A DNA stretch of 64,000 bases from Folioceros fuciformis. Lineage: Eukaryota. Shown here one piece after another: positions 18,509 to 64,000 of this stretch; position 1 is the stretch's first letter; each line of letters begins with the position of its first letter. Where the stretch lies: assembly GCA_049999805.1 (NCBI GenBank), contig JBNGIO010006217.1, forward strand, positions 124,543 through 188,542. Direction: 5' to 3'. The position numbers and the translations under genes were made by a program. The notes under the pieces were generated by a model. That model saw only the letters and a list, made by a program, of their open reading frames with translations. It was not told where the DNA came from and searched no databases.

Positions 18509-19313
18509 CCAAGGTTTTGCAGAGAGGTTCGGTACACCTGGAAGAGCAAGGGACAGTCCTTCACGAACAGATGTGTGACATAAGGCACCGAGCAGCCATA
18601 GAGCCACAGGTATTCCGACCTTCGTTGAGTTTGGCAAATGAACCTGCCCATCCTCGATCACTACATTCTGCCTGAGAACCCTTCTTGCCTCTAAAGGTTC
18701 CAGAAGTCATTCTGCCCTTTCATGAAGACATTGGCTCCAACCTCCAGACAGAGACACTTTGTCTCCGCTGGAGAACAAGAAGTCAGAAAGCTTCCTGAAG
18801 CCGTTGAAACTATAACCTCTTGTCCAATAAAAAAACTCAACACCACAGCTCATCAGACTGTCTAAGAGGCCATCCATAGCTACGTCCTAGACTCGGGTCC
18901 CCATACCGCCCTCTGCAGAAAGAGAAACAAAACACTGCTTCACCATGTCCAATTTAATACCGTCTGTTCGTGATGTCAAACCACAAACGTCGATACACTT
19001 TCGAAGTAGAGTCCTTAGTTTGTTTCAGCGAATTCGAATTACTGTATGGTTGTAACACAATAACTTGCTTCCAATTCATTTCCTTCACTTCGCTTTGTAG
19101 CTCCCGATGGATGGATCAGACTGAACAAAAGGCCTTACTCATTCCTTCCCTCCTCTCCTGACTATGATACTTGTAACCTTTGCTTAGAGTCCTCAACCAT
19201 TCAATTGAGTAGTAATTAAGTCTGGTTCAAAAAATCTACAAACACATTACTTTAATTTGAATTACTGGACATTGTATGCAGATCATAAAAATGAAAATGT
19301 CGGGTTAGCTGGG

Positions 19314-19680
19314 CACCCACTATTCGAGAGGCAGGTTACTCTCTCGAAATCTGGATATGGTGAGCACCCACTATTCGAGAGGCAGGTTACTCTCTCGAAA
19401 TCTGGATATGGTGAGGACCCTCTATTCAAGAGGCAGGTTACTCTCTCGAAATCTGGATATGGTGAGGACCCACTANNNNNNNNNNAGAGGCAGGTTACTC
19501 TCTCGAAATCTGGATATGGTGAGGACCCACTATTCGAGAGGCAGGTTACTCTCTCGAAATCTGGATATGGTTAGCACCCACTATTCGAGAAGCAGATTAC
19601 TCTCTCGAAATCTGGATACGGTGACTACTCCCTCTTGATCTGGAAATGGTGACTACTCCCTAGTAATCTGGATAGGGTGC
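19314..19680. repeat. 51-bp tandem minisatellite (about 6 visible copies, interrupted by a 10-N gap) with an internal hairpin
   Basis: Unit CACCCACTATTCGAGAGGCAGGTTACTCTCTCGAAATCTGGATATGGTGAG repeats near-identically and decays into shorter units at 19620-19680. Confidence 0.95.
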
Positions 19681-20602
19681 CTGTATCTTAAGGTTTTTGG
19701 CTCTCACTAAGATGAGACAAATGGCGTGTGGTTGTTAGCCGAGTCTAGAGGACTGTATTAGGCAATTGCTGCGTAACATAATCCTCTTGGAGCAAAACAT
19801 CTTGCAAGACCTTACTTCCATGGCCATTTGCTTGTCTCTTGCTGTGCATTTTTTTTTTCCAATAAGATTGCATTATTTATTTGGGCCTACTTCCTCCGTG
19901 AGTATTTTGCAAGGATCTCAAAGTTGGTTAGCAAGAATTGCGCTCTTACTCAATAGTAGAAAGTTGAAAACATTTGCATAGTTTGCGCGGTTCATGTTGG
20001 CAATAATTCTAGAAGTTTATTGACTCATTTCGGTCCTACGTGTAATCCTCATTCTCAATCGTAGTGTTTTCCATTTTTGGATTATCATAGTTTAAGATAC
20101 CAATTTTGGCATTTTCTCTTAGGAAAAGGGTTGCTAATGTATTGTTATTCTCACAAGAACAAGGCTTACCACGATTTTGCGTAAGGCTATACACCATGAA
20201 CAAGATTGTCTTAGTCACTTATAAATATTGTAGTTTTAAATCAAGAAAAATATTTTAAATAGACTTATAATATAAAAGCAAGCACTTTATGTACTAAAAT
20301 TTAAATCCAAAATTTAGCAATTTTTTATTGATTTTATTTTACTTATATCCAATGATTGAGCCAAGTTCTTATTAAACCATGTATTACAATAATCCATTAT
20401 AGCTAAAACATGACACATTAAGACTTTTGGCTGTGAATTTGTAAAATAAATTATCTTAAAAAATAATATATTTATAAAAATAGCTATTTTCTATAAATAT
20501 AGAAAAAAATATCATGATACAAAATTTTAAACTTCATTAAATTGTTCAGTTCTCCTTCTACTCTTGCTTTGTGTAGTTGTGTAGTTTATAGTCAAAGTTC
20601 TC

Positions 20603-21541: not shown

Positions 21542-23443
21542 TCACCTTTGAAAGGGCAACCACCATCTTGACCGGGAATGAGATCCACTAGCTCCCACGG
21601 CTTGCTCAAGATGAGTCTCCTGGAAGTAGCGAGGAGGCGCCTGGATGTCATGGGAGCCGTGAATGTCCAGGCTGCGACCCACGATATGACTTTTCAGGCA
21701 CAGCATTAACACAATGCCCATCAAACTCAGGACAGGTCCTGCACCAAGGGCGAGCCACGCTCTCGGGCCACCGCCACCAGTCTCCGAAGACGAGTCCGGT
21801 GTGGGTGTTGGGTCTGAGTCTGGAGCCATATCCTGTTCTGGGCCCAGGGCATCTGCATAGTCTGAAGGCTCGCTGTCAGTGCTTTCCCTGCTGCTGCTGC
21901 TGCTGGATTCCAGAGAGTCCACAGCCTCCATGTCTGCCTGCCCTCCGGATTGTTGAGAACCCCCAGTGGTCCCTGCAGCATTTCCAGAAAGACCAGCCGC
22001 GGAATTCACGGTCTGTGAGGACACCTGCCTCCCTTGCTTTTCCTGTTCATAGTCAGGGTCGTCGGTGGGCAGCTCGTAACGACACACTGGGCACGAATTT
22101 CTCGAGGTAAGCCAAGGCAGGATGCAATCGTAATGGTAGAGGTGGAAACAGGGGAGCTGTTTCACAGGCTCACCAAGAGCAACAACCTCCTTGCAGATTG
22201 CACACAATGCAGCTCCTTGATCGATGTGTTCCTGCTTGATCTTAACCGTGGGCAGAGCTTCCACTGCTGATTTCGAAGCAGGAGGGGCACCCCTCCTGGA
22301 ATTATCATTCTCAGCCATCTGCTGCAGCAGCTGCTCGAATCCCCTGGCATCCACGTAGTCTCCCGGATTGCCCACGTAGTCTCCCGTATTGCCCACATAG
22401 AAGGGATTCGCATATCGTGGGAGTTGCACACGGACCTCTATGTTCTCACCCATCAGATTTCGCAACAAATCTTGCAGATACTGGTGGAGGGTATTCTCAA
22501 TTCTCCTCGTCCTCATCTGCAAACTGTGAAGATCACGCGCCCTCGCACTCCCCCTTCCCCTCCCTCCCTGCACCGCCTGGGCCTGGGCTACTGCTTCCGG
22601 ACGAGACCTGCTGCCACCACCATCTTCAGGCTGCAGAGGTTCTGCCCCCGCATCATCCCCATCCTCATCCAGCTCCTCCCACTCCTCCTCATCCAACGAA
22701 TCCCACCCGTCGAGGTCCAGCCGCATCCCCTCCGCCTCCACTTCACTATCACTCCCTTCAGCAGCCATCCCCATAGCTGCAGCAAGCTCCTCCCCTTCCT
22801 CGTGCTCCCGATCCATTCCCCCCGCCTCATACCCAGCATGCGCAGGGAGACTCAACGCCGAAGGCTGTCCCTCATCCTCCACCGTCACATCCGGTGGTGC
22901 CTCATAGCCCAGCCCCATGGACAAGGCCATCCTCCTAAACGCCGCTCCCTCTCTGCCACCCACTGGGACTTCCTGGTCCTGCACCACCAAGCCATCAGCA
23001 TTTCCCTGCCCTTGCCCGGACGAGTCCACTACGACTGGAGATGGTGGTAACGTGGACGTGTGCGCTGTCTGCCCTAACAGCCTCAAGACCTGCATCAGCT
23101 GCTCCGGGTAAGCATGCTCAAGAGCCTCGGCCAAAGCAGCACGTCTTACACGATTCGTGCCCTGCGCTTGACCCTGAGCCCCCCCAGCCGCTCCCTGGTG
23201 CCGTCTCCGTCTCTGTGCTCGCCGCACATCAGGCACCGCTTGGGCCGTGGCCATCATCTCCACAAACCCACTTCCACACTCCACACAGCACATACCTTGC
23301 TCATCTGCCGCAGCCTCAACTGCCACCTCCTTGTTACACTGGTAGCACCAATGCAGCTGCGGGCCTCCCCCTCCTCCTCCTCCTGCCCCAGCCGTGGAAT
23401 GCCCTTCCCCGCCTCCCCGCTCCTCCCCGGCCTCCGCCTCCAT
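21542..23443 (-). CDS. RING-H2 E3 ubiquitin ligase with N-terminal zinc ribbon and C-terminal hydrophobic segment (BTL/RNF126-like architecture), single exon
   Basis: Zinc ribbon HWCYQCNKEV...CVECGSGFVE; GNPGDYVDARGFEQLL; RGAPPASKSAVEALP; RING-H2 CAICKE...LPCFHLYHYDCILPWLTSRNSCPVCRYELPTDD; hydrophobic LGAGPVLSLMGIVLMLCL. ATG at 23443, with a 400-N gap just upstream. Confidence 0.92.
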   Translation of the reverse strand: MEAEAGEERGGGEGHSTAGAGGGGGGGPQLHWCYQCNKEVAVEAAADEQGMCCVECGSGFVEMMATAQAVPDVRRAQRRRRHQGAAGGAQGQAQGTNRVRRAALAEALEHAYPEQLMQVLRLLGQTAHTSTLPPSPVVVDSSGQGQGNADGLVVQDQEVPVGGREGAAFRRMALSMGLGYEAPPDVTVEDEGQPSALSLPAHAGYEAGGMDREHEEGEELAAAMGMAAEGSDSEVEAEGMRLDLDGWDSLDEEEWEELDEDGDDAGAEPLQPEDGGGSRSRPEAVAQAQAVQGGRGRGSARARDLHSLQMRTRRIENTLHQYLQDLLRNLMGENIEVRVQLPRYANPFYVGNTGDYVGNPGDYVDARGFEQLLQQMAENDNSRRGAPPASKSAVEALPTVKIKQEHIDQGAALCAICKEVVALGEPVKQLPCFHLYHYDCILPWLTSRNSCPVCRYELPTDDPDYEQEKQGRQVSSQTVNSAAGLSGNAAGTTGGSQQSGGQADMEAVDSLESSSSSSRESTDSEPSDYADALGPEQDMAPDSDPTPTPDSSSETGGGGPRAWLALGAGPVLSLMGIVLMLCLKSHIVGRSLDIHGSHDIQAPPRYFQETHLEQAVGASGSHSRSRWWLPFQR

Positions 23444-23480
23444 CGGATACCTTCCCAACCTCCTCACACTCTCCACCCGC

Positions 23481-23880
23481 NNNNNNNNNNNNNNNNNNNN
23501 NNNNNNNNNNNNNNNNNNNNNNNNNNNNNNNNNNNNNNNNNNNNNNNNNNNNNNNNNNNNNNNNNNNNNNNNNNNNNNNNNNNNNNNNNNNNNNNNNNNN
23601 NNNNNNNNNNNNNNNNNNNNNNNNNNNNNNNNNNNNNNNNNNNNNNNNNNNNNNNNNNNNNNNNNNNNNNNNNNNNNNNNNNNNNNNNNNNNNNNNNNNN
23701 NNNNNNNNNNNNNNNNNNNNNNNNNNNNNNNNNNNNNNNNNNNNNNNNNNNNNNNNNNNNNNNNNNNNNNNNNNNNNNNNNNNNNNNNNNNNNNNNNNNN
23801 NNNNNNNNNNNNNNNNNNNNNNNNNNNNNNNNNNNNNNNNNNNNNNNNNNNNNNNNNNNNNNNNNNNNNNNNNNNNNNNN
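23481..23880. other. Assembly gap (400 N); other gaps at 19476-19485, 45529-45628, 49986-50085, 52184-52193 and 62972-63071
   Basis: Runs of N in the sequence. Confidence 1.
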
Positions 23881-24719
23881 AACCTCCACAAACACTGCAA
23901 TTCGCACCAGGCCAGGGGCCAGCAACGAAGGTGCAAAGCATGGGATCGAGAACAAAGAACCTGGCAAGACGCTGACTGAAGTTTCCCCTTCTGCTGCTGC
24001 TGCTGCTGTTGAGGATTAGATTGGCCTCAGTCCGACCACGAGATCGAACGACCCCTGCTGCGATCGGCGTCTGATCCTGGCCCCGGCCCTGCTTCTCGTG
24101 TGTCACAGTAACGAGCCTTTCAGGTCCCACCCACTCGTACCACCACCAGATGGCTGCCCCCGACCATCCCCCAAGGCGAGCATCACAAGCGGCTCTCCGC
24201 TCCCGATCACAAAGTGCGATCCCTCGGGTTATTCGCCGCCTTTTCACATTCCCTTGCCAAGCACACGCGTTCACACGCACTTCAGGGCTTTACAAATATG
24301 TGGTCCATGTGGAAACTCGAAAGCCTAGCTATCGAGGAGCCTTCCAGTTGTCATTGGAGAGGTCCAGTCCCAGGCCAACTCCTAGTCCCAGTCCCGGGTC
24401 TAGTTTCGCATGCCTCCCATGGAACGTTGAAGGCTCAGGTGGCGGCGTTCCGGATGGGTCACCCACGTACTGTTCAGTACTCGGTTGTGATGGAGTTTGG
24501 GTGATAGTGCACGAGTACATGTCATGCATCTTGGTTGCATGTGATGGGTTTAGCTCCTCTTCCCAACTTCTTGGATATCTAACAAGGATTGCTCCTCCAT
24601 GGCTCACGGTTTCAAGGGTGCAAGTGCTGCATCGCTGAGTGAGTGACATGAAGTGATCACCGAGTTGCTCTAAGGAAGAGGCACAGGGTGGGTGGGTGGG
24701 TGGGGTGGTTTTGCGAGCC

Positions 24720-26918
24720 ATGGCTGCTTGGTGTGGTGGGATTGAGTCATGCAAAAGGCAGCAGGATCTGTTGTTGTTGGGGTGGACGCAGCAGTTTGGT
24801 GGTGGGGGGGTGACGGGTATTGTAGGAAATGGGCCTGCTCGCCTGACTTCAAGGACCCTGCTGTCGTTGACAGGCCAGGAATGTGTAAAGTGGAGCACAT
24901 TCTCGACATGCACGGGGGCTGCCCGTGCAAGGTCATTCTTGATTGGAGATGGATCTACATTGAAGTGGGATAGCAGGCAAAGTAGGATCCAGGCTAGGGG
25001 CTTGTGGGGGGAGACCGTGAGCCAGCTTTGTGATGGGGGCCATGTCACTGAGGCTGTTGAGGCTCTGGGGGTTCTGGTGCAGACAGATGGAGAGATTCCC
25101 ACATCTCTGCTTTATAAAGTGGTGAGGAGGTGTGTGGTGGAGAAGAATCTTGTGCTGGGTCGCCGTGTGCATGCCTTCATAGTGAAGAAGGGATATGAGT
25201 CGGATACGTTTCTGGGCAATCACATCCTGCGGATGTATGCTTCTCACGGTAGGTTGCAAGAAGCGATGGATGTGTTCAGTGCGGTGGAGGAGGCAGATGC
25301 CTTCATGTGGTCTTCGGTCATCGCTGCACATGTTAGACAAGGGCAGGATAAGGAGGCCATACGATTGTATCGTAGGATGCGGGTGTCAAGAGTGAGGCCG
25401 GATGGGCATGTGTTTGTGGCAGCCCTTCAGGCTTGTGCAAGGGGATTGGACTTGGAGGCTGGGCAGGAAGTGCATGCTGATGTGTTGGCCGGTGGAGTGC
25501 AGCCGGATGTGTTTGTGTGTAACTGCTTGGTGGATATGTATGCCAAGTGCGGCAGCTTGGAGGATGCTGAGAGAGTGTTTCACGGGCTTGGTGAGAAGAC
25601 TGTGGTCACCTGGAATGCTATGATAGCAGGGTATTCGCAGAAGGGCATGGGGCAGAAAGCCCTTGATGTGTACAGGGCAATGCAGGGCGAAGGCTTGGTT
25701 GAGCCTGACTCTGTGACATTTGCCTGCCTCCTGCAGGCATGTGCAAGTGTGGGCACCCCAGCTTTGGAGAGGGGGAGGGAGCTCCATGCGCAGATCAGAG
25801 ATCAAGGGCATGAAGCTGATGTGTTTGTAGCCAGCAGTCTGGTGAACATGTATGCCAAGTGTGGCAGCGTGGGAGACGCACAGAGGGTGTTCGACAGACT
25901 TGGTCACAAGAACGTGGTGACGTGGACTACCATGATAGCAGGGTATTCCCAGCAGGGCATGGGGCAGGAAGCCCTCCGTTTATACGCTGCTATGCAAGAA
26001 GAAGGCATTGCTGTACCCGATGCTGTGACATTTGCCTGTCTCCTGCAGGCATGTGCAAATGTGGCAGCTCTGCATCTGGGAAGGCAGCTACATGCACAGA
26101 TCAAGGAGCGGAGGCTTCAAGCTGATGTGTTCATAGCCGGCAGTCTGATAAGCATGTACGGGAAGTCCGGCAGTATGGGCGATGCTCAGGAGGTGTTTGA
26201 TGCGATGCACGAACGCGATGTCATTGCCTGGAGTGCACTGATTGCAGGTTACACTTCTCAAGGCAACAGCGAGATGGTGTTTCACTTGTTCCACAGAATG
26301 GTTCAGGATGGTATACGTCCAACCGGCACCACATTCCTCAGTCTTCTGACAGTATGCAGCTATACAGGTCTAGTGAGCAAGGGGCAAGAGTACTTCCAGG
26401 CTATGAGCCCACAGCATGGCATCCGTCCTGGTGTGGAGCACTACACGTGCTTGGTTGATCTCCTGGGTCGTGCTGGCCGACTGGACGAAGCTCTAGTGTT
26501 GGTACGGTCCATGCCTGTACCCCCTGATGCTACAGTTTGGAGCACTCTGTTGGGTGCCTGTCAAAAGTGGAGCAACGTGGATGTAGGCCGCTATGCTTTC
26601 GATGAAGCAGTGAAGCTGGATAAGAAAGATCCGGCAGCATACGTGCTAATGCTGAACATATACGGGGGTGCCCAGATGTGGGAGCAGGCACAAGAAATGC
26701 AGACAAGGAGAGTAGGGACTGGGGCATGGAAGCAGCCAGGTCAGAGTTGCTGGACAGACATGGACGGCCTGGTGCACATCTTCCGGGCTGGGCACGAGAA
26801 GCATGAGCATCAACCTCCTGGGAGTGATACAAAATTGAAACAGCAGAGCTCCTCCCAAGATGAAGGAGCAGGGATCGTACTAACATCTCCAATGTCGACA
26901 TGTCTGATTGTGGGATGA
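24720..26918 (+). CDS. PLS-class PPR RNA-editing factor, E1-E2-E+ (WW-type PG box), DYW domain truncated
   Basis: P-L-S triplets (LVDMYAKCGS, VVTWNAMIAGY, VTFACLLQACA), HYTCLVDLLGRAG, E motifs, then WKQPGQSCWTDMDGLVHIF. No in-frame HxE or CxxC. Intronless. Confidence 0.93.
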   Translation: MAAWCGGIESCKRQQDLLLLGWTQQFGGGGVTGIVGNGPARLTSRTLLSLTGQECVKWSTFSTCTGAARARSFLIGDGSTLKWDSRQSRIQARGLWGETVSQLCDGGHVTEAVEALGVLVQTDGEIPTSLLYKVVRRCVVEKNLVLGRRVHAFIVKKGYESDTFLGNHILRMYASHGRLQEAMDVFSAVEEADAFMWSSVIAAHVRQGQDKEAIRLYRRMRVSRVRPDGHVFVAALQACARGLDLEAGQEVHADVLAGGVQPDVFVCNCLVDMYAKCGSLEDAERVFHGLGEKTVVTWNAMIAGYSQKGMGQKALDVYRAMQGEGLVEPDSVTFACLLQACASVGTPALERGRELHAQIRDQGHEADVFVASSLVNMYAKCGSVGDAQRVFDRLGHKNVVTWTTMIAGYSQQGMGQEALRLYAAMQEEGIAVPDAVTFACLLQACANVAALHLGRQLHAQIKERRLQADVFIAGSLISMYGKSGSMGDAQEVFDAMHERDVIAWSALIAGYTSQGNSEMVFHLFHRMVQDGIRPTGTTFLSLLTVCSYTGLVSKGQEYFQAMSPQHGIRPGVEHYTCLVDLLGRAGRLDEALVLVRSMPVPPDATVWSTLLGACQKWSNVDVGRYAFDEAVKLDKKDPAAYVLMLNIYGGAQMWEQAQEMQTRRVGTGAWKQPGQSCWTDMDGLVHIFRAGHEKHEHQPPGSDTKLKQQSSSQDEGAGIVLTSPMSTCLIVG

Positions 26919-31215: not shown

Positions 31216-34200
31216 ATGGCTGTTTGGAGATTACCTGGCGTCCGAGGAAGAGGTCCCGCTCATCTTTCTCCAAGGAGCCAACTGATGGCAAACAACGGTG
31301 CCACGAGGTGCGGTGCCTTTGTAGCAAAAGGAAGTCTGGCTGGAGAGGCATCTTACAACTTCCATGTATGGCGGCGACAGTTTTATTCGGATCCCACGCT
31401 TTGGTGGGAAAGCAGACAGCAGGATAGTTGTGGTTCCCTGGATCCTCGGCTAAGGGAGCCTCAGGATATTCTTTTCTTTGACGAACTTAGCAAGTCAGCT
31501 CGTGGGGTGGCTGCTCTGGACGTGCACATGGGTGGTTGTGCTCCTCCATCCAACTCGATCGTTCCCCATGATTTTCACCCTCGCAGACCTGTAGGATACG
31601 AAATGGAGATCACAGCTGAAACCGTGAGCAAGTCATGTCACCAGGGACAGCTCGCTGAGGCCATTGAGGCTCTGGGAGTTCTTGTGCACACCCACGTCGA
31701 CATCTCCACATCTCTGTTTTACACAGTCCTAAAAGAATGTGTGGCTAAGAAGGATCTGGTTCTGGCTCGCCTTATTCATGCTCTCATGGTGAAGAAAGGA
31801 TATGAAACGAACACGTTCCTGTGCAACCACATCCTCCGAGTGTATGCTTCTCATGGCAGGTTGAAAGAAGCTATGGGCGTGTTCACTGTGGTGGAAAAAC
31901 CAGATGTCTTCACCTGGTGTGCCATAATCTCCGCCCATGTCAAACACGGACAGGACATACAGGCCATAGAGCTATATCAGCAGATGCGCCGGTCAAGTGT
32001 GAAACCAAATGGGCATGTGTTTGCAGCAGCCCTTCAGGCGTGTGCAATGGGGGGGAACATGAAATTAGGGCAGCAGGTGCATATTGATGTCTTGGCTAGT
32101 GGCATTCAGCCTGACTTGTTTGTGTGCAGCAGCTTGGTGGACATGTATGCCAAGTGCGGTAGCTTGGATGACGCTCGAAGGGTCTTTGACGGGCTACCTC
32201 AGAAGGATGTTGTGACTTGGAATGCCATGATTGGAGGATATTCCCAGCAGGGTATGGGACGAGAAGCCCTTCGTGTTTACAGTGCTATGCAAGCAAGTGG
32301 CGGGACTGCACCCAACTCTGTGACATACGTGTGCCTTCTGCAGGCATGTGCTAGTGTGCGTATCCCAGCTTTGGAGAGTGGTAGGCAGCTTCATGCACAG
32401 ATAGGAGAACGAGGACTTCAGGCTGATGTAGTGTTAGGTGGGAGCCTGGTGAACATGTACGCAAAGTGCGGTAGTCTGGAGGATGCTCGAGGCGTATTTG
32501 ATGGACTCGGGCGAAAGAATGTGGTGACGTGGAATGCCATGATATCAGGATATTGTCAGCACGGCATGGGCCAGCAAGCCCTTGGTCTTCGCAGAGTTAT
32601 GCAAGAAGATTGCGCAGTACCTGATCCTGTGACTTTGGTCTGCCTTTTGCAGGCATGTGCAAGTGTGGGCAGCTCAGCTTTGGAGGAGGGGAGGCAGATT
32701 CATTCACAAATCAGAGAAAGAGGACTTCAGGCTGATGTTGTTATTGCTAGCAGTTTGGTGGACATGTATGCAAAATGTGGCAGCATAGAGGAAGCTCGAG
32801 GCCTATTTGACAGACTTGTTCAAAAAAACGTGGTGACATGGAGTGCCATGATAGCTGGATACGCCCACCAGGACATGGGTCAGGAGTCCCTCCTTCTTTA
32901 CGACGCTATGCAAAAAGAAGGTATGACTTTACCCAATCTGGTGACATTTGTGTGCCTGTTGCAGGTATGTGCAAGTTTGGGTATCTCGGCTTTGGAGAAG
33001 GGAAGGCAGCTTCATGCGCAAATCATCAAACAAGGACTTGAGGGTGATATTTTACTGGCCAACGGCTTGGTGAGCATGTATATAAAGTGCGGCAGCCTGG
33101 AGGATGCTCAGGGCGTGTTTACTAGTATTAGTGTAAAGAATATTGTGACGTGGAATGCCATGATATCAGCATACTCCCAGCAGGGCATGGGGCAGGAAGC
33201 GCTTCTTCTCTACAGTGCTATGCAAAAAGAGGGCATTGTTTTACCCAATACTGTGACGTTCGTTTCTCTCCTGCAGGCATGTGCAGCTATGGGGACCCGG
33301 TCTCTGGAGCAGGGGAAGCAATTTCATGCTGAGATTGTAAAACGAGGGCTTGTGGCGGATGTAGTTGTGGGAGGGAGCCTGGTGAACATGTACGCAAAGT
33401 GTGGCAGCCTGGAGGATGCTCGGGCTGTATTTGAGGGACTTGGAAAAAAGAATGTGGTGACATGGAGTGCTCTCATAGCAGGATATTCCCAACAGGACAT
33501 GGGCCATGAGGCCCTAGATCTCTACAGCGCTATGCAAGAAGAAGCTGTCACTGTACCCGATTCTGTAACATTTGTATCCCTCCTGCAAGCATGTGCGAGT
33601 GTTGGCCTCGCAGGTCTAGAGAAGGGGAAGGAGCTTCATGCACAAATTAGAGAACAAGGACTACATGATGACGTTTCTGTTGCCAACAGCTTGGTAAACA
33701 TGTATGCAAAGTGTGGCAACCTAGAGGATGCACAGGGTGTGTTCGACGGACTTTGTCAAAGAAATGTGGTCACATGGAGTGCCTTGATAGCTGGTTATTC
33801 CCAGCAGGGCATGGGTGAGGAAGCCCTTCGCCTTTACAAAGCTATGCAAGAAGAAGGCATTGTTACGCCGAATTCCGTGACATTTGTGTGTCTCCTGCAG
33901 GCATATGTCAGTTTGGGCACCACTAGTTTGGACACTGGGAAGCAGCTTCATGAGCAGATTAGAGATCAAGGACTTGAGACTGATGTTGTTGTAGGTGGGA
34001 GCCTGGTCAACATGTACGCAAAGTGTGGTAGGCTGGAGGATGCTCTGTGTGTGTTCAAGAGACTCAGTCGAAAGACTGTAGTTACGTGGAATGCCATGAT
34101 TGGAGGATACTGTCAGAGAGGGATGGCACAGGAAGCTCTTGATCTCTACGCGGTCATGCAAATGGAAAATGCGATTGTACCTGATTCTGTGACATTCCTT

Positions 34201-35898
34201 TGTCTTCTTCAGTCGTGTGCAAGTTTAGGCACTCCAGCGTTGGAAAAAGGGAAGCAACTTCATGCAGCACTCAGAGAACAAGGACTCCAAGCTGACATGT
34301 TTGTCGCTAGCAGTTTGGTGGACATGTACGCAAAATGTGGCAGCCTGAAAGATGCTCGGGCCCTGTTTGATGGATTGGGGGAGAAGAATGTGGGGACATG
34401 GAATGCCATGATAGCGGGATATTCCCAGCAAGGCATGGGGATGGAAGCTCTCTGTCTTCATAAGGCTATGCAAGAGGAGGGCATCTCTAAACCCAACAGT
34501 GTGTCCTTTGTGTGCCTCCTGCAGTCATGTGCAAGTTTAGGCCCTCCAGCTTTGGAGCAGGGGAAACAACTCCATGCAGCTGTCACAGAACAAGGTCTCC
34601 AGGCTAATGTGGTTATAGCCAACAGCTTGGTGAACATGTATGCAAAATGCGGTAGCCTAGAAGATGCTAAGAAGATGTTCGCTGGCCTTCCTCAGAAAGA
34701 CGTGGTGACATGGAATTCCATGATAGCAGGGATTTCCCAGCAGGGCATGGGACTAGAAGCCCTTAATCTTGTCAATGATATGCCACATGAGAGCATGGCT
34801 GAACCAAGTGCTGTGACACTCGTGTGCCTACTCCAGGCTTGTGCCAGTGTGGGCCCCCTGGCATTGGAACAAGGGAGGCAGCTTGATGCACGAATTAGGG
34901 AACGAGGTCTTCAAGAGGATGTATTTCTGGCGAGCAGTCTAGTCAACATGTATGCAAAGTGTGGCAGCCTCGAGCATGCTCGCGCAGTGTTTGATGGACT
35001 CAGTGAAAAAAATGTGGTGACATGGAGTGCCATGATATCTGGATATTCCCAGCAGGGCATGGGGCAGGAAGCGCTTCGTCTCTACAGTGCTATGCAGCAA
35101 GAAGGCATTGTTGTACCGAATTCCGTGACATTCGTCTGTCTACTTCAAGCTTGTGCATCTGTGGCGGCTTTGGATTCTGGAAGGCAGATTCATGCACAGA
35201 TCAAAAAGCGAGGGCTGGAAACTGATTTGCTTGTAGCTGGCAGTCTGATGAGTATGTATGGAAAATGCGGCAGTGCCGTCGATGCTCAACAGCTTTTCGA
35301 GGCACTGGAGGAAAGAAACGTTGCCATCTGGAATGCACTGATTGCGGCATACTCCCGGCAGGGACACAGCGAAAAGGTTTTCGATTTGGTCGTCAGGATG
35401 AGTGAGGACGGCATCAAGCCAGACGGCGTTACATTCTTGAGTCTCCTGGCAGTATGCAGCCACGGAGGTCTAGTGAAGAGGGGACGAGATTACTTCGACA
35501 CGATGAGCAAAGACTACGGCATCGCCCCCACAGTGGACCATTACACATGCATGGTCGATCTCCTCGGTCGTGCCGGCCAACTGGACGACGCACTAGCTGT
35601 AGCAAGGACAATGCCTGTACTCCCTACCGCTGCAGTATGGCACACTCTACTAGGCGCTTGTCAAAAGTGGAGAAACGTGGAGATCGCATTTGATGCGTTC
35701 AGCGAAGCAGTCAAGCTAGACAAGAAGGACGCTGCATCCTACGTGTTGATGTCGAATATATACACAAGTGCTCAGATGTGGGAGCAGGCACAAGAAATGC
35801 ACGCGAGAAGAGTCCAAATGAAGGCATGGAAGCAGCCTGGCCTGACCTGGTGGACAGACATGGATGGACTGGTGCACAATTTCTCTGTGAGGAAGTGA
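31216..35898 (+). CDS. Very long (1560 aa) PLS-class PPR RNA-editing factor, about 12 PLS triplets, E1-E2-E+ (WW-type), DYW domain truncated
   Basis: Twelve S-type motifs at a ~312-nt period, then HYTCMVDLLGRAG and E motifs, ending WKQPGLTWWTDMDGLVHNFSVRK*. Intronless. Confidence 0.95.
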   Translation: MAVWRLPGVRGRGPAHLSPRSQLMANNGATRCGAFVAKGSLAGEASYNFHVWRRQFYSDPTLWWESRQQDSCGSLDPRLREPQDILFFDELSKSARGVAALDVHMGGCAPPSNSIVPHDFHPRRPVGYEMEITAETVSKSCHQGQLAEAIEALGVLVHTHVDISTSLFYTVLKECVAKKDLVLARLIHALMVKKGYETNTFLCNHILRVYASHGRLKEAMGVFTVVEKPDVFTWCAIISAHVKHGQDIQAIELYQQMRRSSVKPNGHVFAAALQACAMGGNMKLGQQVHIDVLASGIQPDLFVCSSLVDMYAKCGSLDDARRVFDGLPQKDVVTWNAMIGGYSQQGMGREALRVYSAMQASGGTAPNSVTYVCLLQACASVRIPALESGRQLHAQIGERGLQADVVLGGSLVNMYAKCGSLEDARGVFDGLGRKNVVTWNAMISGYCQHGMGQQALGLRRVMQEDCAVPDPVTLVCLLQACASVGSSALEEGRQIHSQIRERGLQADVVIASSLVDMYAKCGSIEEARGLFDRLVQKNVVTWSAMIAGYAHQDMGQESLLLYDAMQKEGMTLPNLVTFVCLLQVCASLGISALEKGRQLHAQIIKQGLEGDILLANGLVSMYIKCGSLEDAQGVFTSISVKNIVTWNAMISAYSQQGMGQEALLLYSAMQKEGIVLPNTVTFVSLLQACAAMGTRSLEQGKQFHAEIVKRGLVADVVVGGSLVNMYAKCGSLEDARAVFEGLGKKNVVTWSALIAGYSQQDMGHEALDLYSAMQEEAVTVPDSVTFVSLLQACASVGLAGLEKGKELHAQIREQGLHDDVSVANSLVNMYAKCGNLEDAQGVFDGLCQRNVVTWSALIAGYSQQGMGEEALRLYKAMQEEGIVTPNSVTFVCLLQAYVSLGTTSLDTGKQLHEQIRDQGLETDVVVGGSLVNMYAKCGRLEDALCVFKRLSRKTVVTWNAMIGGYCQRGMAQEALDLYAVMQMENAIVPDSVTFLCLLQSCASLGTPALEKGKQLHAALREQGLQADMFVASSLVDMYAKCGSLKDARALFDGLGEKNVGTWNAMIAGYSQQGMGMEALCLHKAMQEEGISKPNSVSFVCLLQSCASLGPPALEQGKQLHAAVTEQGLQANVVIANSLVNMYAKCGSLEDAKKMFAGLPQKDVVTWNSMIAGISQQGMGLEALNLVNDMPHESMAEPSAVTLVCLLQACASVGPLALEQGRQLDARIRERGLQEDVFLASSLVNMYAKCGSLEHARAVFDGLSEKNVVTWSAMISGYSQQGMGQEALRLYSAMQQEGIVVPNSVTFVCLLQACASVAALDSGRQIHAQIKKRGLETDLLVAGSLMSMYGKCGSAVDAQQLFEALEERNVAIWNALIAAYSRQGHSEKVFDLVVRMSEDGIKPDGVTFLSLLAVCSHGGLVKRGRDYFDTMSKDYGIAPTVDHYTCMVDLLGRAGQLDDALAVARTMPVLPTAAVWHTLLGACQKWRNVEIAFDAFSEAVKLDKKDAASYVLMSNIYTSAQMWEQAQEMHARRVQMKAWKQPGLTWWTDMDGLVHNFSVRK

Positions 35899-41529: not shown

Positions 41530-43532
41530 TCAGCAGCCAGTCATCTTCTTGGCCTGCTTTCCATCATCTGGCACAAGTCCATCATTGCCGGCTAGAATCC
41601 TGTATTTGTCCCTTCGCGTCAAGTTGGTGCACTCGAATCCTAACGAGGCAGCCAATGACCTTTGAATATAGTTGGCAACTTCATGGCTGGATTTACCCCC
41701 AGCACAGGTCATCTCCAACGGCAGTTGCTCCAGGAATGTGACTTCGTAGAGGGGTGATGGGTTCATGAAAAAGAAGAAGGGATCCATTCCCTTCATGCCC
41801 CTCGCAGAAGTGCCATGAAACATTGAGATGTGGCAACGCATAGTAACAGGCACGATGCAATCCGCTAGTTCCGCAAACAGCGAGGAGAACCGAAGGAGAA
41901 ACGGCTCCCTGCAAGTTGTCCCTTCTGGGCAAACCACAAGGTCTCCTTCTTCCAGCAGAGTTTGCATCATCTTGGCATCCTTGTCCCGGCAACGGGTCAA
42001 GCGCACCGTCTTGATTGGGGACAGAACCTGCACACAGACAGGAGGAGTCGGCAATCCAGAGCTGGCGAAGCAGCGCAAGAGGGGGAACAAGTTGGGCATC
42101 CTTACCTCGGATACTCGGCTTATGGAGTAGGTGACGGCCGTGACATTCCTCCTCAAGGCGATGGAAAGGAAAATGGGATCCAGCAGCGTGCGATGTGAGC
42201 AGACAAACAGGACCCCACTTCTTCCCTCTGCCACTCCTGAGGTAGGAGGCGTACCTTTGATAACTACTCTCACTCCCAGCATAGTCTCCACAGGGAGAGC
42301 CCACCACATGGGGATGCTGATGCCGATGGACATGCGCACTACTGCCAACAGCAGGCCCAAGGGAGCCCACAGGAAGATCAAGAGTGACATCAAGGGAGTG
42401 GGTCTCTGCACGAGCCTCCCATCATGAAACACCAACGGCTTCAAGTACTCGTGGCGAGGCACTGGATCTACCTTCTTGTTGCGGGGTACGAGGTAGGCTT
42501 CCTGCAAAGATGGATGCAGAGACGGGCGTGTCAAACCAGATACGTGTAGCCAAATGCCCAGCAGCGTGGCCAGCTTGGCCGACTTCACGTTGATGCGGAG
42601 GTCCGGATTCCTGGCCTGAAGTCGGGGAGTCTGTTGGGACTGCCGAGGTAAAACTTTGCTCAGGGAGGGATTATAGTTACCTTGCAGAGGGTGAGGAATG
42701 GCAAGTCAGATGCTCTGTCTCCCAAGCCAACGTCAGGCGCAACGCCATGGAACTTGTGCTGGACTGCATCGCGCTTCTTCGAGCCCACTAAAACCCCCGG
42801 ACCGGATACCAATCCTGTCGCATGGCCTCCCGCAGTGACTTGGATCTCTGTGCCCATTACCCCGTCCACCTCCAGGTACTCCTTCAGAAACGGCTCCACC
42901 ATGATCCGTGGGTTGGCAGTGACCACGTACCTGGGAGTCACATGTTGCATAACACAACCATCCATCATGAATCGCTTAACTGAGATCAAACTTTCTCCAG
43001 CAAGCCATCAATCCTACCACGGCCACTCGGCAGAAGTAGCCATCGCTCACCTCTTGCCGCAGGCGATGAAGATTCTATAGGCCTCGGGATGCATGTCTTC
43101 CAGGTAGAACTTGCAGAGAACAGCTCTGGACGCAGACTCTATCTCCGACACCTTCAAGCCTGCGTAACTGAAGAAGATGAGGATCTTGATACCTGCCGCC
43201 TCCGACACAAAATGGTACAGAACCCAAGCCAGTGGTGCCAGCAGCAGCAGCAATACGGCCCGCAATGGGCTCCCTGCCTCAAAAGCCACCAGCATGAAGT
43301 AGGGGAAGCTGCTGCTGGATCGGAGGAGAGTGCCGTCCAAGTCCGACACTACAGTGTGCTGCTCCCGGCCCAGGAGCCCACATCTGTCCACAAACGGCAG
43401 CGTTGCGCTCTGCGTCTGGTAGCATTCTGTCCTGCTGCATCCCCACGGTTTCCGATCAGGTGACAGCGCGGTGACTGTCCTCTCCTTTCTGCCATCTCCT
43501 GCCCGAGAAGCAAAACCGCCCATCCCTCCCAT
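41530..43532 (-). CDS. GPAT: sn-2 glycerol-3-phosphate acyltransferase (GPAT4/6/8-like, HAD phosphatase plus PlsC domains), four exons
   Basis: HAD motifs [10 protein letters not shown] and [21 protein letters not shown]; acyltransferase motifs CSHRTLLDP and [17 protein letters not shown]-terminal [15 protein letters not shown]. Confidence 0.95.
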
Positions 43533-58600: not shown

Positions 58601-59153
58601 ACCACATGGTCATCCTTATATGGTATTAGAAAAGACCTAAAAAACCTTAAAAAAAAAAAGACAAACCTAGAACACCTAAAAAAATAAGAAAAGACAACCT
58701 AGAACAGAGAATCCACTCTATCTAGTATGGATTTATGGGCAGAGATGTTTTAAATAATAAAAGAATTTATTGAAAGATAAATAATAAATAATATTAATGC
58801 TATAAAGTAAAAAATTGGAAGTAGAGAAGACAAGAAAATTAATATAATAGTTGGTCTTGGGAAGATCACCTGTTGATAGACAACTCATGGATGGTGGAGT
58901 TTGGATGAATCATTGCTTTCAAGAAAAGCACACCATCATGGAGAAGGTAGCTTCTCCAAAGCTGCCGGGGTTGAAGCTGAGTTTACAGCATCACGTTTCT
59001 GTGCTGTCTTGCACGAAGGTGTAGCAATCAGTGTTCTAGATTTGATATGGGGTCCATAGATTTCATGAGCATCACTAGCCATTCTGCCACAGCGTAACTA
59101 CAGATGTGTTTAAGTATGTCGTAGGCCTATTGTCCGAGAGCAGGGCCCGGAAG

Positions 59154-62066
59154 ATGGCCACAGCATGGCAACTGGATTTGTCTTACATCCAACAAATTGT
59201 TGGGGGTACAGGAATTATCAGAGGAACTCCAGCTCATGTCACCTCAGGGAGTCGTCCGCTGGGATACAACCAAGCCTCCAGGTGCAGGACCGTGAGGAGC
59301 CCGGCTCTTCCATTGCCGGGAAAATGTGCAGGTGGATGCTCGAGGGATGGAGCCAGCCAGGGGCAGGAGCGGTTGTGGAGGCAATTATTTTTGGGTTCTG
59401 CCTTGTGGTGGGATGACAGGCGAGGTACGAAGAGGTTTCGTGCCCCTGACTTCCGACGTGAATGGTCTAGCCAGGTCTTGCTGGTAAACAACACAGCCGA
59501 GCCAACGCCAGCTTGGGCGGATGAGGAGCTCGTTTGCTTGGATTTGCGGATGGGTCGTGGTTCCTCTTGGTGGAAGAGGAAGCCTGTGGAGAAGAATGAG
59601 CCTGGCAGGCGTGGGGGGTCGGGAATGGGCGTCGTCACCGGTGTAACCGTGGGCACGCTGTGTCAGCAGGGGAAGCTTAATGAGGCTGTTGGAGCTTTGG
59701 AATATCTTGCCAAGGCGGAGGGTGCGATTTCTGAGTCTTTGTTTTATTCTGTGCTGAAACTGTGCGCGGCTAAGAGGGATCTGGTTTTGGGGCGACGGGT
59801 TCATGATCTCACCGTCAAACTTGGGTACGAGTCGAATTCGTACTTGGGGAACCATATCTTGCGCATGTATGCATCTGGAGGTCGGCTACAAGAGGCCATG
59901 GATGTGTTCACCAGGGTGGGAAAACCAAATGCTTTCATGTGGTTTTCCATCATCTCCGCTCATGTGAAACATGGGAAGCCTAATGAGGCTATACAGCGGT
60001 ACCATGCAATGCGTGGCTCAGGTGTGACGGCAGATGCGCACGTCTTTGTAGCTGCTCTTCAAGCTTGTGCACTTGCCATGGACTTGGAATCTGGCAGGGG
60101 AGTACACTGTGATGTGTTGAACAGTCGCATGGCTCCTAACTTGTATGTTGGCAACAGCCTGGTTGACATGTATGCAAAATGTGGCGCACTGAAAGATGCA
60201 CGCCAGGTTTTTGACAGCTTGACCGCTAAGGATGTGGTGACATGGAATTCCCTAATTGCTGGGTATGCACAGCAAGGGCTCGGTCAGGAGGCGCTTGGTC
60301 TGTATGGACAAATGGAGGAAGAGGGCCTGATTTTGGCTAACCAAGTTACTTTCTCTTGCATTCTGAAGGCCTGTGCAAGCGCTGGTGCTTTGCAGAAGGG
60401 CAGGGAGGTGCACTCACAGATTGTTCAAAGAGGACTGCTGGACAACATGCTCGTGAGCACCTGCCTGTTGGACATGTATGCAAAGTGTGGTGCATTGAAA
60501 GATGCACGTCTAGTTTTTGATAGCTTGGCCACTAAGGATGTGGTGACATGGAATGCCTTGATTGCTGGGTATGCCAATCAAGGGCTCTGCCAAGAGGCGC
60601 TCGTTCTGTATGGCCAAATGGAGCAGGAGGGCATAGTTGTGCCTGACCATGTTACTTTTGCAGGCCTTCTGAAGGCCTGTGCAAGCGTTGGTGCCTTAAA
60701 GAAGGGCAGGCAGCTGCACACTCAGATTGTGAAAAGAGGATTGATAGATGACATAGTGCTGGGCAACGCTCTGGTGGACATGTATGCAAAATGCGGAGAA
60801 ATGAGGGATGCACAAGGGGTTTTTGACAGCTTGGCCTCAAAAAATGTGGTGACATGGACGGCCCTGATAGCTGGGTATGCACAGCAAGGGCTTGGCGAAG
60901 AGGCGCTTGTTGTGTATGGACAAATGGAGCAAGAGGGCTTGATTTTGGCTAACCATGTTACTTTTGCTTGCCTTTTGAAGGTTTGCGCGAGCACCGGTGC
61001 CTTGCAGAAAGGCAGGGAGCTGCACTCACAGATTGTGGAAAGTGGACTGTTAGATAACATACTGGTAGGCAGTTGCCTGATAGACATGTATGCGAAGTGT
61101 GGCGAACTGGAAGACGCACGAAGGGTTTTCGACAGCTTGGCCACAAAAAGTGTGGTGACATGGACGGCCCTGATATCTGGCTGTGGGGCTTGTGATGAAG
61201 GCCACTCCGCAGTAGCTTGTTTTGAGGCGATGTTGGATGCCAGTGTTCAGCCGGATGAAGCTACTTTTACTTGTCTTTTAGCAGCATGCAGTCATGAGGG
61301 ACTCGTGCATGAGGGACGCAAGCACTTCGATTCCATGGCTGAACAGCACGGCATCAATCCTACTATTGAGCATTACAATTGCATGATTGACCTTCTTGGG
61401 CGTGCAGGTCACTTAGACGAGGCAGAGAGCATGTTAGTATCATGTGGGAGCCAAAGCAATGCTGTGGGGTTGACATCTTTGCTTAGTTCCTGCAAGAGTT
61501 ACGGGGATGTAGAGAGGGCGATACGGTGTTTTGAAAGCCTCGTTACGCTGGAGCCTCAGGGTGCATCGGCGTATGTGCTCATGGCCACTGCCTATGCAGA
61601 CGCTGGGAGATGGGCGGATGTGGACAGGATTGAAAAACGGAGAATGATGGCAGGAGCTAACAAGAAGCCTGCAATGGCAACCATTGAGGTGGAGAAGCAG
61701 GTACACACATTTGTGGTTGGAGAAAACAGAGAAGATATTGCTCTCAAGGTGGGGAGCATGAACAAACGTCTGCAGCAGGAAGGGGGCCACGTGCCACTCA
61801 CAGAGTTGGTGCTGAAGCCACTGCACGAGAAGGAAAAGGAGGATCAGCTTTGCGGGCATGCTGAGAAGCTAGCTCTGGCGTATGGTCTCTTGAATACCTC
61901 GGATGGCACCCCTCTGCTGGTAACGAAGAATCTACGCATGTGCAGTGACTGCCACAGTTCCACGGAGGTCATGTCAAGGGTTGAAAAGAGAGACATTGTT
62001 GTCAGGGATGGGTATCGTGTGCATCGATTCGCAGCTGGTGGATGCAGTTGTCGGGGTCGACCGTGA
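59154..62066 (+). CDS. PLS-class PPR protein with complete DYW:KP domain, GRP subtype (candidate U-to-C organellar RNA-editing enzyme)
   Basis: PLS triplets at a 306-nt period, E1/E2, then KKPAMATIEV in place of the PG box, LCGHAEKLALAYGLL, KNLRMCSDCH, RDGYRVHRF and terminal CSCRGRP*. Intronless; ATG at 59154. Confidence 0.93.
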   Translation: MATAWQLDLSYIQQIVGGTGIIRGTPAHVTSGSRPLGYNQASRCRTVRSPALPLPGKCAGGCSRDGASQGQERLWRQLFLGSALWWDDRRGTKRFRAPDFRREWSSQVLLVNNTAEPTPAWADEELVCLDLRMGRGSSWWKRKPVEKNEPGRRGGSGMGVVTGVTVGTLCQQGKLNEAVGALEYLAKAEGAISESLFYSVLKLCAAKRDLVLGRRVHDLTVKLGYESNSYLGNHILRMYASGGRLQEAMDVFTRVGKPNAFMWFSIISAHVKHGKPNEAIQRYHAMRGSGVTADAHVFVAALQACALAMDLESGRGVHCDVLNSRMAPNLYVGNSLVDMYAKCGALKDARQVFDSLTAKDVVTWNSLIAGYAQQGLGQEALGLYGQMEEEGLILANQVTFSCILKACASAGALQKGREVHSQIVQRGLLDNMLVSTCLLDMYAKCGALKDARLVFDSLATKDVVTWNALIAGYANQGLCQEALVLYGQMEQEGIVVPDHVTFAGLLKACASVGALKKGRQLHTQIVKRGLIDDIVLGNALVDMYAKCGEMRDAQGVFDSLASKNVVTWTALIAGYAQQGLGEEALVVYGQMEQEGLILANHVTFACLLKVCASTGALQKGRELHSQIVESGLLDNILVGSCLIDMYAKCGELEDARRVFDSLATKSVVTWTALISGCGACDEGHSAVACFEAMLDASVQPDEATFTCLLAACSHEGLVHEGRKHFDSMAEQHGINPTIEHYNCMIDLLGRAGHLDEAESMLVSCGSQSNAVGLTSLLSSCKSYGDVERAIRCFESLVTLEPQGASAYVLMATAYADAGRWADVDRIEKRRMMAGANKKPAMATIEVEKQVHTFVVGENREDIALKVGSMNKRLQQEGGHVPLTELVLKPLHEKEKEDQLCGHAEKLALAYGLLNTSDGTPLLVTKNLRMCSDCHSSTEVMSRVEKRDIVVRDGYRVHRFAAGGCSCRGRP

Positions 62067-63081
62067 GAATGATGATGAACTAGGCAGTCAGTGATTCCGA
62101 GCAGGGGATGGGTCTGGAAGCCCTTGTCCTTTCCCGGTGCGGTGATGGGTCATTTGGAGGCGGTTTCCCGTTGGCTTCAGTATTACCCACACTGAGGCCA
62201 AGCTCCAACTGCTGTCTGGATCTTGTGCTCTGCCGGGCTTGACTTTGTCAAAACGGAGACTTCCCAGGTCTGCGCTGCGGAACGAACATATCCGTGAGTG
62301 GGTTTGTCCTCTGCCAACTGCTTTGGCCTACACAGCAGCTGGCCAGAAGGACAGAAAACCCTTTATCCTATTCTAGACCTCGTACTCGAATCTGAGCACG
62401 AAACAGCTTCCCAGTCTGCATGTGTGGAGGAACGCATTCAATACAACAGTGCATTCCTATCTCTGATCCGCCTAGGCTGGACCCCGAAGAGTCCAGTACC
62501 ACAACCTTCTCTTCAGCGAGCACAGTGGAGTGGACGAGACCCCACCGACAATGACATGCGAGCAGCAAAGCTGAAGGCGGTCCACTTGGACACTAAACTG
62601 TCCAGACCAATCTTTCGACAGGCACTCGGCCAGAAGATTTTGTTCGTGTATTGTGCATGCCGCGATTTGTGCTTGGCTGGTCAATAAAGATCGGAGCACT
62701 CAAGGTGTTCTTGAAACCCGTGGTCTTCAAAGTTCCTGGAGTTGGGCAGTGGATCCGTTTGTCCTCGCAGTTGCAGGAGGTGGACAGTGAGTCCGTTTTC
62801 CTCGCAGTTGCAGGAGGTGGGCCGTGTTATACATCGGTGTTAGCAGCTCACTCCGTTGCATGTTATGGCTTGAGCTTTATCAAGTTTCCGCGAAGCTTTT
62901 CTCTGGCTTCGATCCTTTCTGATCGAATAGGTTGTGTGCTACCCGTGTGGAATTAGGAGATCAGACCTGATNNNNNNNNNNNNNNNNNNNNNNNNNNNNN
63001 NNNNNNNNNNNNNNNNNNNNNNNNNNNNNNNNNNNNNNNNNNNNNNNNNNNNNNNNNNNNNNNNNNNNNNNGAGGAGGAGG

Positions 63082-64000
63082 ATGGAGGCTGCTGGCCCGG
63101 CGGAAGAAGCGGCAGCGGCAGGAAAGAAGAGGTGCCTTGTGCGTTTGACAAGGTCTGTGACGGCAGCAGCGCGACGGTATGATGAAAGGGAAAGGAATGA
63201 GGGAGAGCTGGAGCCTGCTGGAGGCGGCGAGGCTGCTTCCAGCCAGGAAGCAGAGCCAGCTGCTGAAGAGAATCAGGCCAGGGCTAAGAATGGCGGGACA
63301 AAGAAACGGAAGAGGATGGACACGCGGGAGGTCTTGAAGCAGATGGAGGCGGAAGGTGTGGACCCGCTGAAGATGAAAATGAGCGACCTGATATGGCGTG
63401 CACAAGCGCTGGAGAGACTCAAGGCCAAGGACGACCCTGCGAAAAAGGCGCCTGCGCAGAGGCGGGTGGTGCAAGAAGCCAGGAATGGGGACGCGCAGCG
63501 AGTGGAACCTGTGGCTGTGGCGGCTCCGCAGGTGCAGGTGGTTGATGGAAGAATTGTGATCAACGAGGAGAGCCTGGTGATATCGTCTCACGCCACCGAG
63601 GCACGGAACGGGGAAGGGTATACCAGGGTGGAGGAGAACGTGTCCAAGCTGAATTACCACAGCTACAGCAACCGCGAGAAGGTGGACCGGTGGAAGCCTG
63701 AGGAGACTGATAGGTTCTACAAGGCGTTGGAGCAGTTCGGGACCGATTTCGGGTTGATCGAGCACCTGTTCCCGGGTCGGACACGGCGGCAGGTGAAGGC
63801 CAAGTACAAGATTGAGGAGAGGCTGAACCCTCGCCGCCTGGATGACGCTTTGAATTGCATGTCCCGGGGACCTGTGTATCACCAGGAATTGGTTGAGATG
63901 TTGATGCCCCAGCCCCAGCCCCAGCCCGCAGATGAAGTGGAGGATGTGCTTGATGGAGGTGGTGCAACGATGAAGCCGGGTAACGTGCCCGTGGAGGATG
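63082..64000 (+). CDS. BDP1: BDP1 / TFIIIB B'' subunit-like SANT-domain protein (partial; 5' end abuts an N gap, ORF runs off the window)
   Basis: Open frame not listed in the ORF track: APQVQVVDGRIVINEESLVI...KLNYHSYSNREKVDRWKPEETDRFYKALEQFGTDFGLIEHLFPGRTRRQVKAKYKIEERLNPRRLDDAL. Confidence 0.85.
   Translation, partial: MEAAGPAEEAAAAGKKRCLVRLTRSVTAAARRYDERERNEGELEPAGGGEAASSQEAEPAAEENQARAKNGGTKKRKRMDTREVLKQMEAEGVDPLKMKMSDLIWRAQALERLKAKDDPAKKAPAQRRVVQEARNGDAQRVEPVAVAAPQVQVVDGRIVINEESLVISSHATEARNGEGYTRVEENVSKLNYHSYSNREKVDRWKPEETDRFYKALEQFGTDFGLIEHLFPGRTRRQVKAKYKIEERLNPRRLDDALNCMSRGPVYHQELVEMLMPQPQPQPADEVEDVLDGGGATMKPGNVPVED

Follow-up and report, generated by a model that had tools for sequence, protein, structure and literature searches.

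Uridine-to-cytidine (U-to-C) RNA editing is, to our knowledge, the one pyrimidine transition without a characterised native enzyme. A 64,000-nucleotide stretch of the Folioceros fuciformis genome (assembly GCA_049999805.1, contig JBNGIO010006217.1, positions 124,543 to 188,542 of the forward strand; below, the window) raises the question whether one of its genes encodes such an enzyme. The gene concerned is an intact native PLS-class pentatricopeptide repeat (PPR) gene with a DYW:KP domain of the GRP subtype (Table 1). Most likely it serves to edit one organellar transcript from U to C at a specific site and in a Lys88-dependent manner, a reading to which we give a probability of roughly 0.7.

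The gene consists of one uninterrupted, intronless open reading frame (ORF) of 970 codons followed by TGA, about 2.9 kb without an internal stop. The frame is open from position 59106 of the window, and its first ATG lies at 59154. In the 970-aa protein, the Pfam families PPR, PPR_2 and PPR_1 were found with E-values ranging from 1e-50 to 1e-79 (PF01535, E = 1.3e-79; PF13041, E = 7.1e-79). E_motif covers residues 783-845 (E = 6.3e-12), and DYW_deaminase (PF14432) covers residues 878-968 (108.7 bits against a cut-off of 24). Since the E-value for DYW_deaminase was 1.3e-31 and those of the best PPR families were around 1e-79, the PPR and DYW identity of the protein is not due to chance. Membership in the PLS class follows from the segmentation: P-L-S triplets, a P2-L2-S2 triplet, E1 and E2 account for every residue from 159 to 836, and motif lengths of 35/35/31 (36 in three P1 motifs) segment the 18-motif tract exactly.

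Within the catalytic domain, we number residues according to the published 133-aa DYW:KP scheme, in which K1 is the second K of the box KKPAMATIEV. Our segmented domain has 134 aa; the codon of the first K in the box starts at 61662. The register is confirmed, because Lys88 and Met92 fall on their published numbers (PMC11845758, PMC9478123). An initial annotation of the window, made from its letters, had pointed to KKPAMATIEV, the HAE motif, CSDCH and the GRP end at 61662-62066 as the features of a DYW:KP domain, and the sequence and the alignments with PDB entries bear these out to the base. KKPAMATIEV aligns opposite KEPGCSWIEV of 9kfx. In both DYW alignments, 4 residues are missing opposite the 'SHPx' of PG-type domains, in line with the deletion of 3-4 residues typical of KP domains, and 133 residues remain from K1 to P133. 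HAE, with the KP-type alanine in HxE, stands opposite HSE of the PG-type structures, LRMC opposite LRVC (Met92 versus Val), and CSDCH opposite CGDCH.

The residues needed for deamination are also complete. In OTP86, zinc 1 is bound by H892, C920 and C923, with E894 as the catalytic residue, and zinc 2 by H924, H947, C954 and C956 (PMC7611903). All eight have equivalents in the Folioceros protein: H65, C93 and C96 for zinc 1, E67 as the catalytic glutamate, and H97, H120, C127 and C129 for zinc 2. Both the HxE(x)nCxxC catalytic site and the second zinc site, made of two histidines and the C-terminal CxC, are therefore present.

A search of the PDB with the C-terminal 188 residues gave 12 sequence matches, three of them DYW entries: 9kfx (E = 1.3e-48), 7o4e/7o4f (1.5e-27) and 7w86 (4.3e-27). 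All three have HSE in the alignments, and there was no DYW:KP structure among the 12 matches. An AlphaFold2 model of E2 and DYW, calculated from a 36-row alignment, had a mean pLDDT (predicted local distance difference test) of 93.9 and a pTM (predicted template modelling score) of 0.86. Foldseek matched this model with 9kfx (E = 1.2e-17; query-normalised template modelling score, TMq, 0.88), 7o4e_B (target-normalised score, TMt, 0.87) and 7w86 (TMt 0.86). According to the model, the domain has a deaminase fold with a gating insertion. The protein thus resembles the DYW:PG factors of known structure (Arabidopsis OTP86, 7o4e/7o4f; DYW1, 7w86; synthetic 9kfx) in its fold (TMt 0.78-0.87), zinc ligands, catalytic Glu, KNLR lysine and PLS-E1-E2-DYW architecture. 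In contrast, the DYW:PG factors combine a PG box and SHP with HSE, have Val where the Folioceros protein has Met92, possess Lys103 and end in D-Y-W; they carry out hydrolytic cytidine-to-uridine (C-to-U) editing.

In order to place the domain among its relatives, we searched with two queries. With the C-terminal 271 residues as query, a word-seeded search gave 355 proteins at E <= 1e-3 among 2240 candidates. Over these residues, the best match, P0002, was 71% identical and the hornwort proteins ending in DRH were 57-63% identical. The first matches with a species name came from ferns and a lycophyte (43-49%), and the DYW:KP proteins of ferns and lycophytes were at 44-51%. When a 50%-clustered library was searched exhaustively for relatives of the 134-aa domain, 2359 proteins reached E <= 1e-3, but only 10 of them E <= 1e-30. 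Altogether 266 proteins were collected; 248 with a full-length domain were kept, and 18 partial matches were dropped. The C-terminal triplet was GRP in 5 of the 248 (the Folioceros protein included) and DRH in 9. The GRP/DRH naming reportedly goes back to Gerke et al. 2020.

A quick IQ-TREE tree was calculated from 81 domains and 137 columns, with all 63 domains having a residue other than Ser in HxE and a random sample of 18 from the 185 HSE domains. All five GRP rows fell on one side of a branch with a support of 98 in the Shimodaira-Hasegawa-like approximate likelihood ratio test. They were nested in a 22-row clade (support 95) with all 9 DRH rows, while fern-type KP and PG domains were found elsewhere in the tree. 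The DRH proteins are the nearest tree neighbours and share the KP box, HAE, Lys88, Met92 and G64 with the Folioceros protein, but differ from it by Asp131, Lys101, the DRH end and Cys6. Position 6 is Thr in the Folioceros protein and Gly in the remaining four GRP rows; position 101 is E, E, E, T and Q across the GRP rows, and K in 9 of 9 DRH rows. GRP is described as the only group that lacks the conserved Asp of DYW, and there its partner K103 is replaced by Glu (PMC9478123). DYW:KP proteins of ferns and lycophytes (KP4-KP6 type) are alike in having HAE or HCE, a KP-like box and the deletion, but form separate clades and end in other triplets, for example DMF.

The literature describes two DYW:KP variants in hornworts, DRH and GRP, named after their last three residues (PMC9478123), and the DYW:KP subclass as confined to hornworts, lycophytes and ferns. 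The initial annotation had placed DYW:KP/GRP variants in hornworts, ferns and some lycophytes. This holds for DYW:KP as a whole, but GRP and DRH are the hornwort variants, and the other lineages have other KP clades (PMC9478123). The gene belongs to a large, already described family that has been surveyed genome-wide (PMC13386178), and its catalytic domain does not depart from the published GRP pattern.

What such a domain can do is known from designer proteins, and the initial annotation was right that these have been reported to catalyse U-to-C editing. KP2 and KP3, two GRP-consensus designs, reached U-to-C levels of ~26% and 22% in E. coli, and of ~11% and 22% in HEK293T cells. C-to-U editing was not detected, and HAA and AxxA mutants of the designer proteins were inactive (PMC9478123). 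Going by their described hallmarks (Ichinose et al. 2022, PMC9478123), KP2 and KP3 are like the Folioceros protein in the KP box, the 133 aa without xHP, HAE, Lys88, Met92, Glu for K103 and the GRP end. They differ in having a synthetic tract of 9 motifs aimed at Arabidopsis rpoA, whereas the Folioceros gene is natural and has 18 motifs, a putative presequence and an N-terminal region. Lys88 is essential for U-to-C editing by KP2, KP3 and KP6; the K88A mutation turns KP2 and KP3 into C-to-U editors (~81% and 76%) and abolishes U-to-C editing (PMC11845758).

The chemistry of U-to-C conversion, called poorly understood in the initial annotation, now has a model in which Lys88 forms a Schiff base and a crosslink with the RNA (PMC11332814, PMC11845758). 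Applied to the Folioceros protein, the sequence of events would be as follows. The product of the nuclear gene would be imported into an organelle, as its N-terminus may suggest, and the 18 PPR motifs with E1 and E2 would bind one stretch of ~20 nt in a plastid or mitochondrial transcript, with the last S motif over position -4. The C-terminal DYW:KP (GRP) domain would then turn the uridine at position 0 into cytidine, provided that it works in this direction in vivo. As in the model for the designer KP proteins, Lys88 would attack C4 of the bound uridine beside the zinc/Glu67 centre, and the resulting Schiff-base conjugate of protein and RNA would be resolved to cytidine.

The PPR tract suggests which transcript position might be read. 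The pairs of 5th and last residues in the P and S motifs are, from the N- to the C-terminus, G/S, N/N, F/D, N/D, N/N, T/D, N/D, N/N, T/N, S/S, T/D and N/N. All pairs listed in the initial annotation were right, but the list was incomplete, as S1 #15 (S/S), S2 #18 (N/N) and the atypical P1 #4 (F/D) had been omitted. Canonical code pairs occupy 9 of the 12 P and S motifs. In the usual PPR code, T/D stands for G, T/N for A, N/D for U and N/N for C or U, and by convention the last S motif (S2) faces nucleotide -4 of the editing site. The predicted recognition is then Y(-19) U(-16) Y(-15) G(-13) U(-12) Y(-10) A(-9) G(-6) Y(-4), with U at position 0. These positions amount to ~14 bits; perfect matches are expected by chance at ~0.06 per 1000 sites, or ~10 per 700 kb of raw sequence.

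The central part of the tract is a tandem repeat of S-P-L units. The three full units have 78-81% DNA identity, with a synonymous divergence (dS) of 0.50-0.59 and a ratio of nonsynonymous to synonymous divergence (dN/dS) of 0.26-0.33. Between the units all 6 specificity positions vary, versus 42 of 102 positions overall (hypergeometric p = 0.0039). As judged from these comparisons, units under purifying selection with diverged specificity positions appear to form a working RNA-reading scaffold and not a decaying copy. The 306-bp repeat also suggests that the tract grew by duplication of whole S-P-L units.

Several observations speak against U-to-C editing as the function of this gene, and each of them has to be weighed. 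Activity has been measured solely in consensus designs that carry an angiosperm-style PLS tract, and the activity of natural KP proteins is stated to be unknown (PMC11845758). Among the titles and abstract openings searched, none reported that a native DYW:KP protein had been assayed or knocked out. Lys88 is invariant in the 36-row alignment, but its presence does not discriminate KP from PG domains, because the same lysine (K915 in OTP86) is conserved in C-to-U DYW:PG domains.

The direction of editing could also be the opposite one. In this case the protein would be a C-to-U or dual-direction editor acting by canonical zinc/glutamate hydrolytic deamination, for which every residue is in place. 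Designer KP6 is bidirectional, with C-to-U activity in human cells and in vitro (PMC9478123, PMC11332814), and single substitutions flip the direction of editing: E64G and L113V in the fern-type KP6 each shift the activity toward C-to-U (PMC11845758). The Folioceros protein has G64 and V113, the states that favour C-to-U in the KP6 background; G64 is common to all 16 GRP, DRH and related rows listed. These mutational effects were seen in a fern-type background, however, and may not transfer. Neither in E. coli nor in HEK293T cells did the GRP-based KP2 and KP3 show C-to-U activity without removal of Lys88. The Folioceros protein retains Lys88 as well as Ala66 and Met92, and its place in the tree is within the GRP clade. 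We therefore regard C-to-U or dual-direction editing as improbable.

Another difficulty concerns the end of the reaction. KP2, KP3 and KP6 crosslink to their own RNA in bacteria and may be suicide reactants; since the designs stall as crosslinked conjugates, completing the reaction may need unknown factors (PMC11332814). Taken to its extreme, this would make the Folioceros protein mainly a site-specific RNA binder or covalent crosslinker, active for example in stabilisation or translational control, from which no edited cytidine is released. Against this, U-to-C-edited RNAs of the fern Ceratopteris richardii were not crosslinked to protein (PMC11332814), and hornwort plastids complete hundreds of U-to-C events, for example 433 in the Anthoceros angustus plastome (PMC6082510). 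The numbers vary among hornworts: for Leiosporoceros, the same paper gives no U-to-C sites in the plastome and 19-20 in the mitogenome. A pure binder or crosslinker is, in our view, highly improbable.

The gene could finally be a paralogue that is redundant, silent or target-less: intact, recently generated in the massive expansion of PLS genes, and at present editing nothing. Hornwort genomes encode very many PPR proteins: more than 1400 (PMC10030945), or 1,583 to 2,308 PPR genes in four hornworts according to a survey of PPR genes in 22 hornwort genomes (PMC13386178). GRP variants are under-represented in transcriptomes (PMC9478123). Nor did we find an orthologue with a conserved code that would support a maintained target. 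The closest relative, P0002, is collinear over residues 71-970 with 58% identity. Of the 12 P/S code pairs, however, only 2 are the same in both proteins, and P0002 therefore presumably reads another site. For the same reason we treated P0002 as paralogue-like and rejected it as evidence of a conserved target. On the other hand, the 2.9-kb ORF has no stop and the catalytic and zinc residues are all intact, and both the dN/dS values of the units and the canonical code at 9 of 12 P/S motifs speak against this reading. A target-less paralogue is thus unlikely.

Together, these considerations leave U-to-C editing of one organellar transcript as the preferred reading. The view of the initial annotation that the gene is a candidate GRP-subtype U-to-C editor stands by family membership, that is, by the hallmarks, the position in the GRP clade and the activity of the designer proteins. 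Its stronger wording, that the protein is a native U-to-C editor, is something we infer at the probability given above.

The part of the protein before the PPR tract is less conventional. Residues 1-70 contain 2 acidic, 7 basic, 12 S+T and 18 A+G residues, and they are not conserved with P0002, the pairwise alignment beginning at residue 71. From this composition and non-conservation, the segment is possibly an organellar presequence. Residues 71-158, in contrast, are conserved with P0002 and carry the signature W85-W-D-D-R89 ... P98-D-F100 (59406-59453). The two proteins have a module of ~60 aa in common, LWR..F....WWD[DN]R....K....PDFR....N....P.AW.DE.L..LD, and among the 266 collected DYW proteins the WWDxR...PDF motif is present in these 2. 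For residues 71-158, no Pfam family was found at E<=10 and no usable match in the ESM Atlas, and two profile searches (a 5.8-billion-protein set, longer proteins) returned P0002 alone among 110 candidates. This region is the only unexplained feature of the protein. It may resemble the 50-aa 'PDF motif' through which OSB proteins of plant organelles bind single-stranded DNA; that motif has been described without a printed sequence (PMC6963530). That the module is an extra single-strand nucleic-acid-binding domain on these GRP editing factors seems doubtful to us. If true, it might aid target capture or the resolution of the Lys88-RNA conjugate.

Table 1. Features of the PPR-DYW gene (positions within the window; domain residues in the DYW:KP numbering)
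Feature	Position	Strand	Basis
Complete ORF, PLS-class PPR with DYW:KP (GRP) end	59154..62066	+	ORF, Pfam, collinearity with P0002
Possible organellar presequence, residues 1-70	59154..59363	+	composition (putative)
Conserved N-terminal region, residues 71-158	59364..59627	+	alignment with P0002
18 PPR motifs: five P1-L1-S1 triplets, then P2-L2-S2	59628..61460	+	segmentation, Pfam
306-bp tandem repeat, the central S-P-L units of the PPR tract	60150..61174	+	3.3 copies, 79% matches, no indels
E1 motif, residues 770-803	61461..61562	+	segmentation, Pfam E_motif
E2 motif, residues 804-836	61563..61661	+	segmentation, Pfam E_motif
DYW:KP domain, GRP subtype, residues 837-970	61662..62063	+	Pfam, PDB, model, tree
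H65-A66-E67: catalytic zinc ligand, KP-type Ala, catalytic Glu	61857..61865	+	aligned with OTP86 H892/E894
K88-N-L-R-M92-C93-S-D-C96-H97: Lys88, KP-type Met92, zinc-1 Cys, zinc-2 His97	61926..61955	+	aligned with OTP86 K915, C920, C923, H924
K88 codon	61926..61928	+	
M92 codon	61938..61940	+	
C93-S-D-C96-H97 codons	61941..61955	+	
E101, site of the conserved PG-type K103	61965..61967	+	E opposite K, four residues past the CxDCH His
H120 ... C127-S-C129-R-G131-R132-P133-stop: zinc-2 ligands and GRP tail	62022..62066	+	aligned with OTP86 H947, C954, C956
H120 codon	62022..62024	+	
C127/C129 codons	62043..62051	+	
G131-R132-P133 codons	62055..62063	+	
Stop codon TGA	62064..62066	+	sequence

Contigs from four sequencing runs were compared with the locus. 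Two of the runs, X1 and X3, contain exact pieces of the locus, X3 being an RNA run by guess only. For X6 and X11, from two other organisms, thousands of contigs (88% likeness) match the PPR and DYW parts only. This pile-up points to the presence, in related organisms, of very large families of closely similar PLS genes. Depth, joints and variant letters over the repeat region were rejected as signs of editing or splicing and regarded as paralogue noise, given the thousands of PPR contigs at 88% likeness.

The window contains two further PLS-type PPR ORFs on the forward strand. The first (24696-26918, 740 codons) has an E motif and ends after KQPGQSCWTDMDGLVHIF followed by a non-DYW tail; the second (31216-35898, 1560 codons) also has an E motif and ends just past its PG-type box (KQPGLTWWTDMDGLVHNFSVRK-stop). 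The PG-type boxes of the two read KQPGQSCW... and KQPGLTWW..., and neither ORF has a Pfam DYW_deaminase match. Because of the E motif, the lack of DYW_deaminase and the stop soon after the PG-type box, we assign both to the E+ type, a subgroup reported to be enriched only in hornworts (PMC13386178). The two E+-type genes and the affinity of the PPR-DYW protein to GRP and DRH sequences both fit a hornwort nuclear genome as the most likely origin of the window. A PPR gene cluster was considered and rejected: PPR genes account for ~7.9% of all protein-coding gene predictions in one Anthoceros species (PMC7027989), and from this share three PLS genes in 64 kb were judged not clearly above background.

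Downstream of the PPR-DYW gene, a 100-N assembly gap (62972-63071) is followed by a forward-strand ORF at 63082-63999 that runs past the end of the window and has Myb_DNA-bind_7 and Myb domains (E = 1.1e-27). Other Pfam-matched ORFs, all on the reverse strand, encode a glycosyltransferase (Gb3_synth / Gly_transf_sug, 4577-6499), a RING-finger/Zn_ribbon_19 protein with a 400-N gap (21542-24280) and an acyltransferase (41530-42588). The stretch 12001-20000 has a low G+C content (0.39-0.42 versus ~0.5 elsewhere) and may be a mobile element; its ORFs 13753-15102 (449 codons) and 15678-16925 (415 codons) matched no Pfam family at E<=1e-5.

As one of very many such hornwort genes, the gene is of practical rather than conceptual value. 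Designer DYW:KP proteins are in development as programmable U-to-C editors, yet they come to a halt while crosslinked to the RNA. A native GRP gene that is intact and has a readable code is an object on which the natural completion of the reaction, the pairing of factor and site, and the effect of natural versus consensus residues could be tested.

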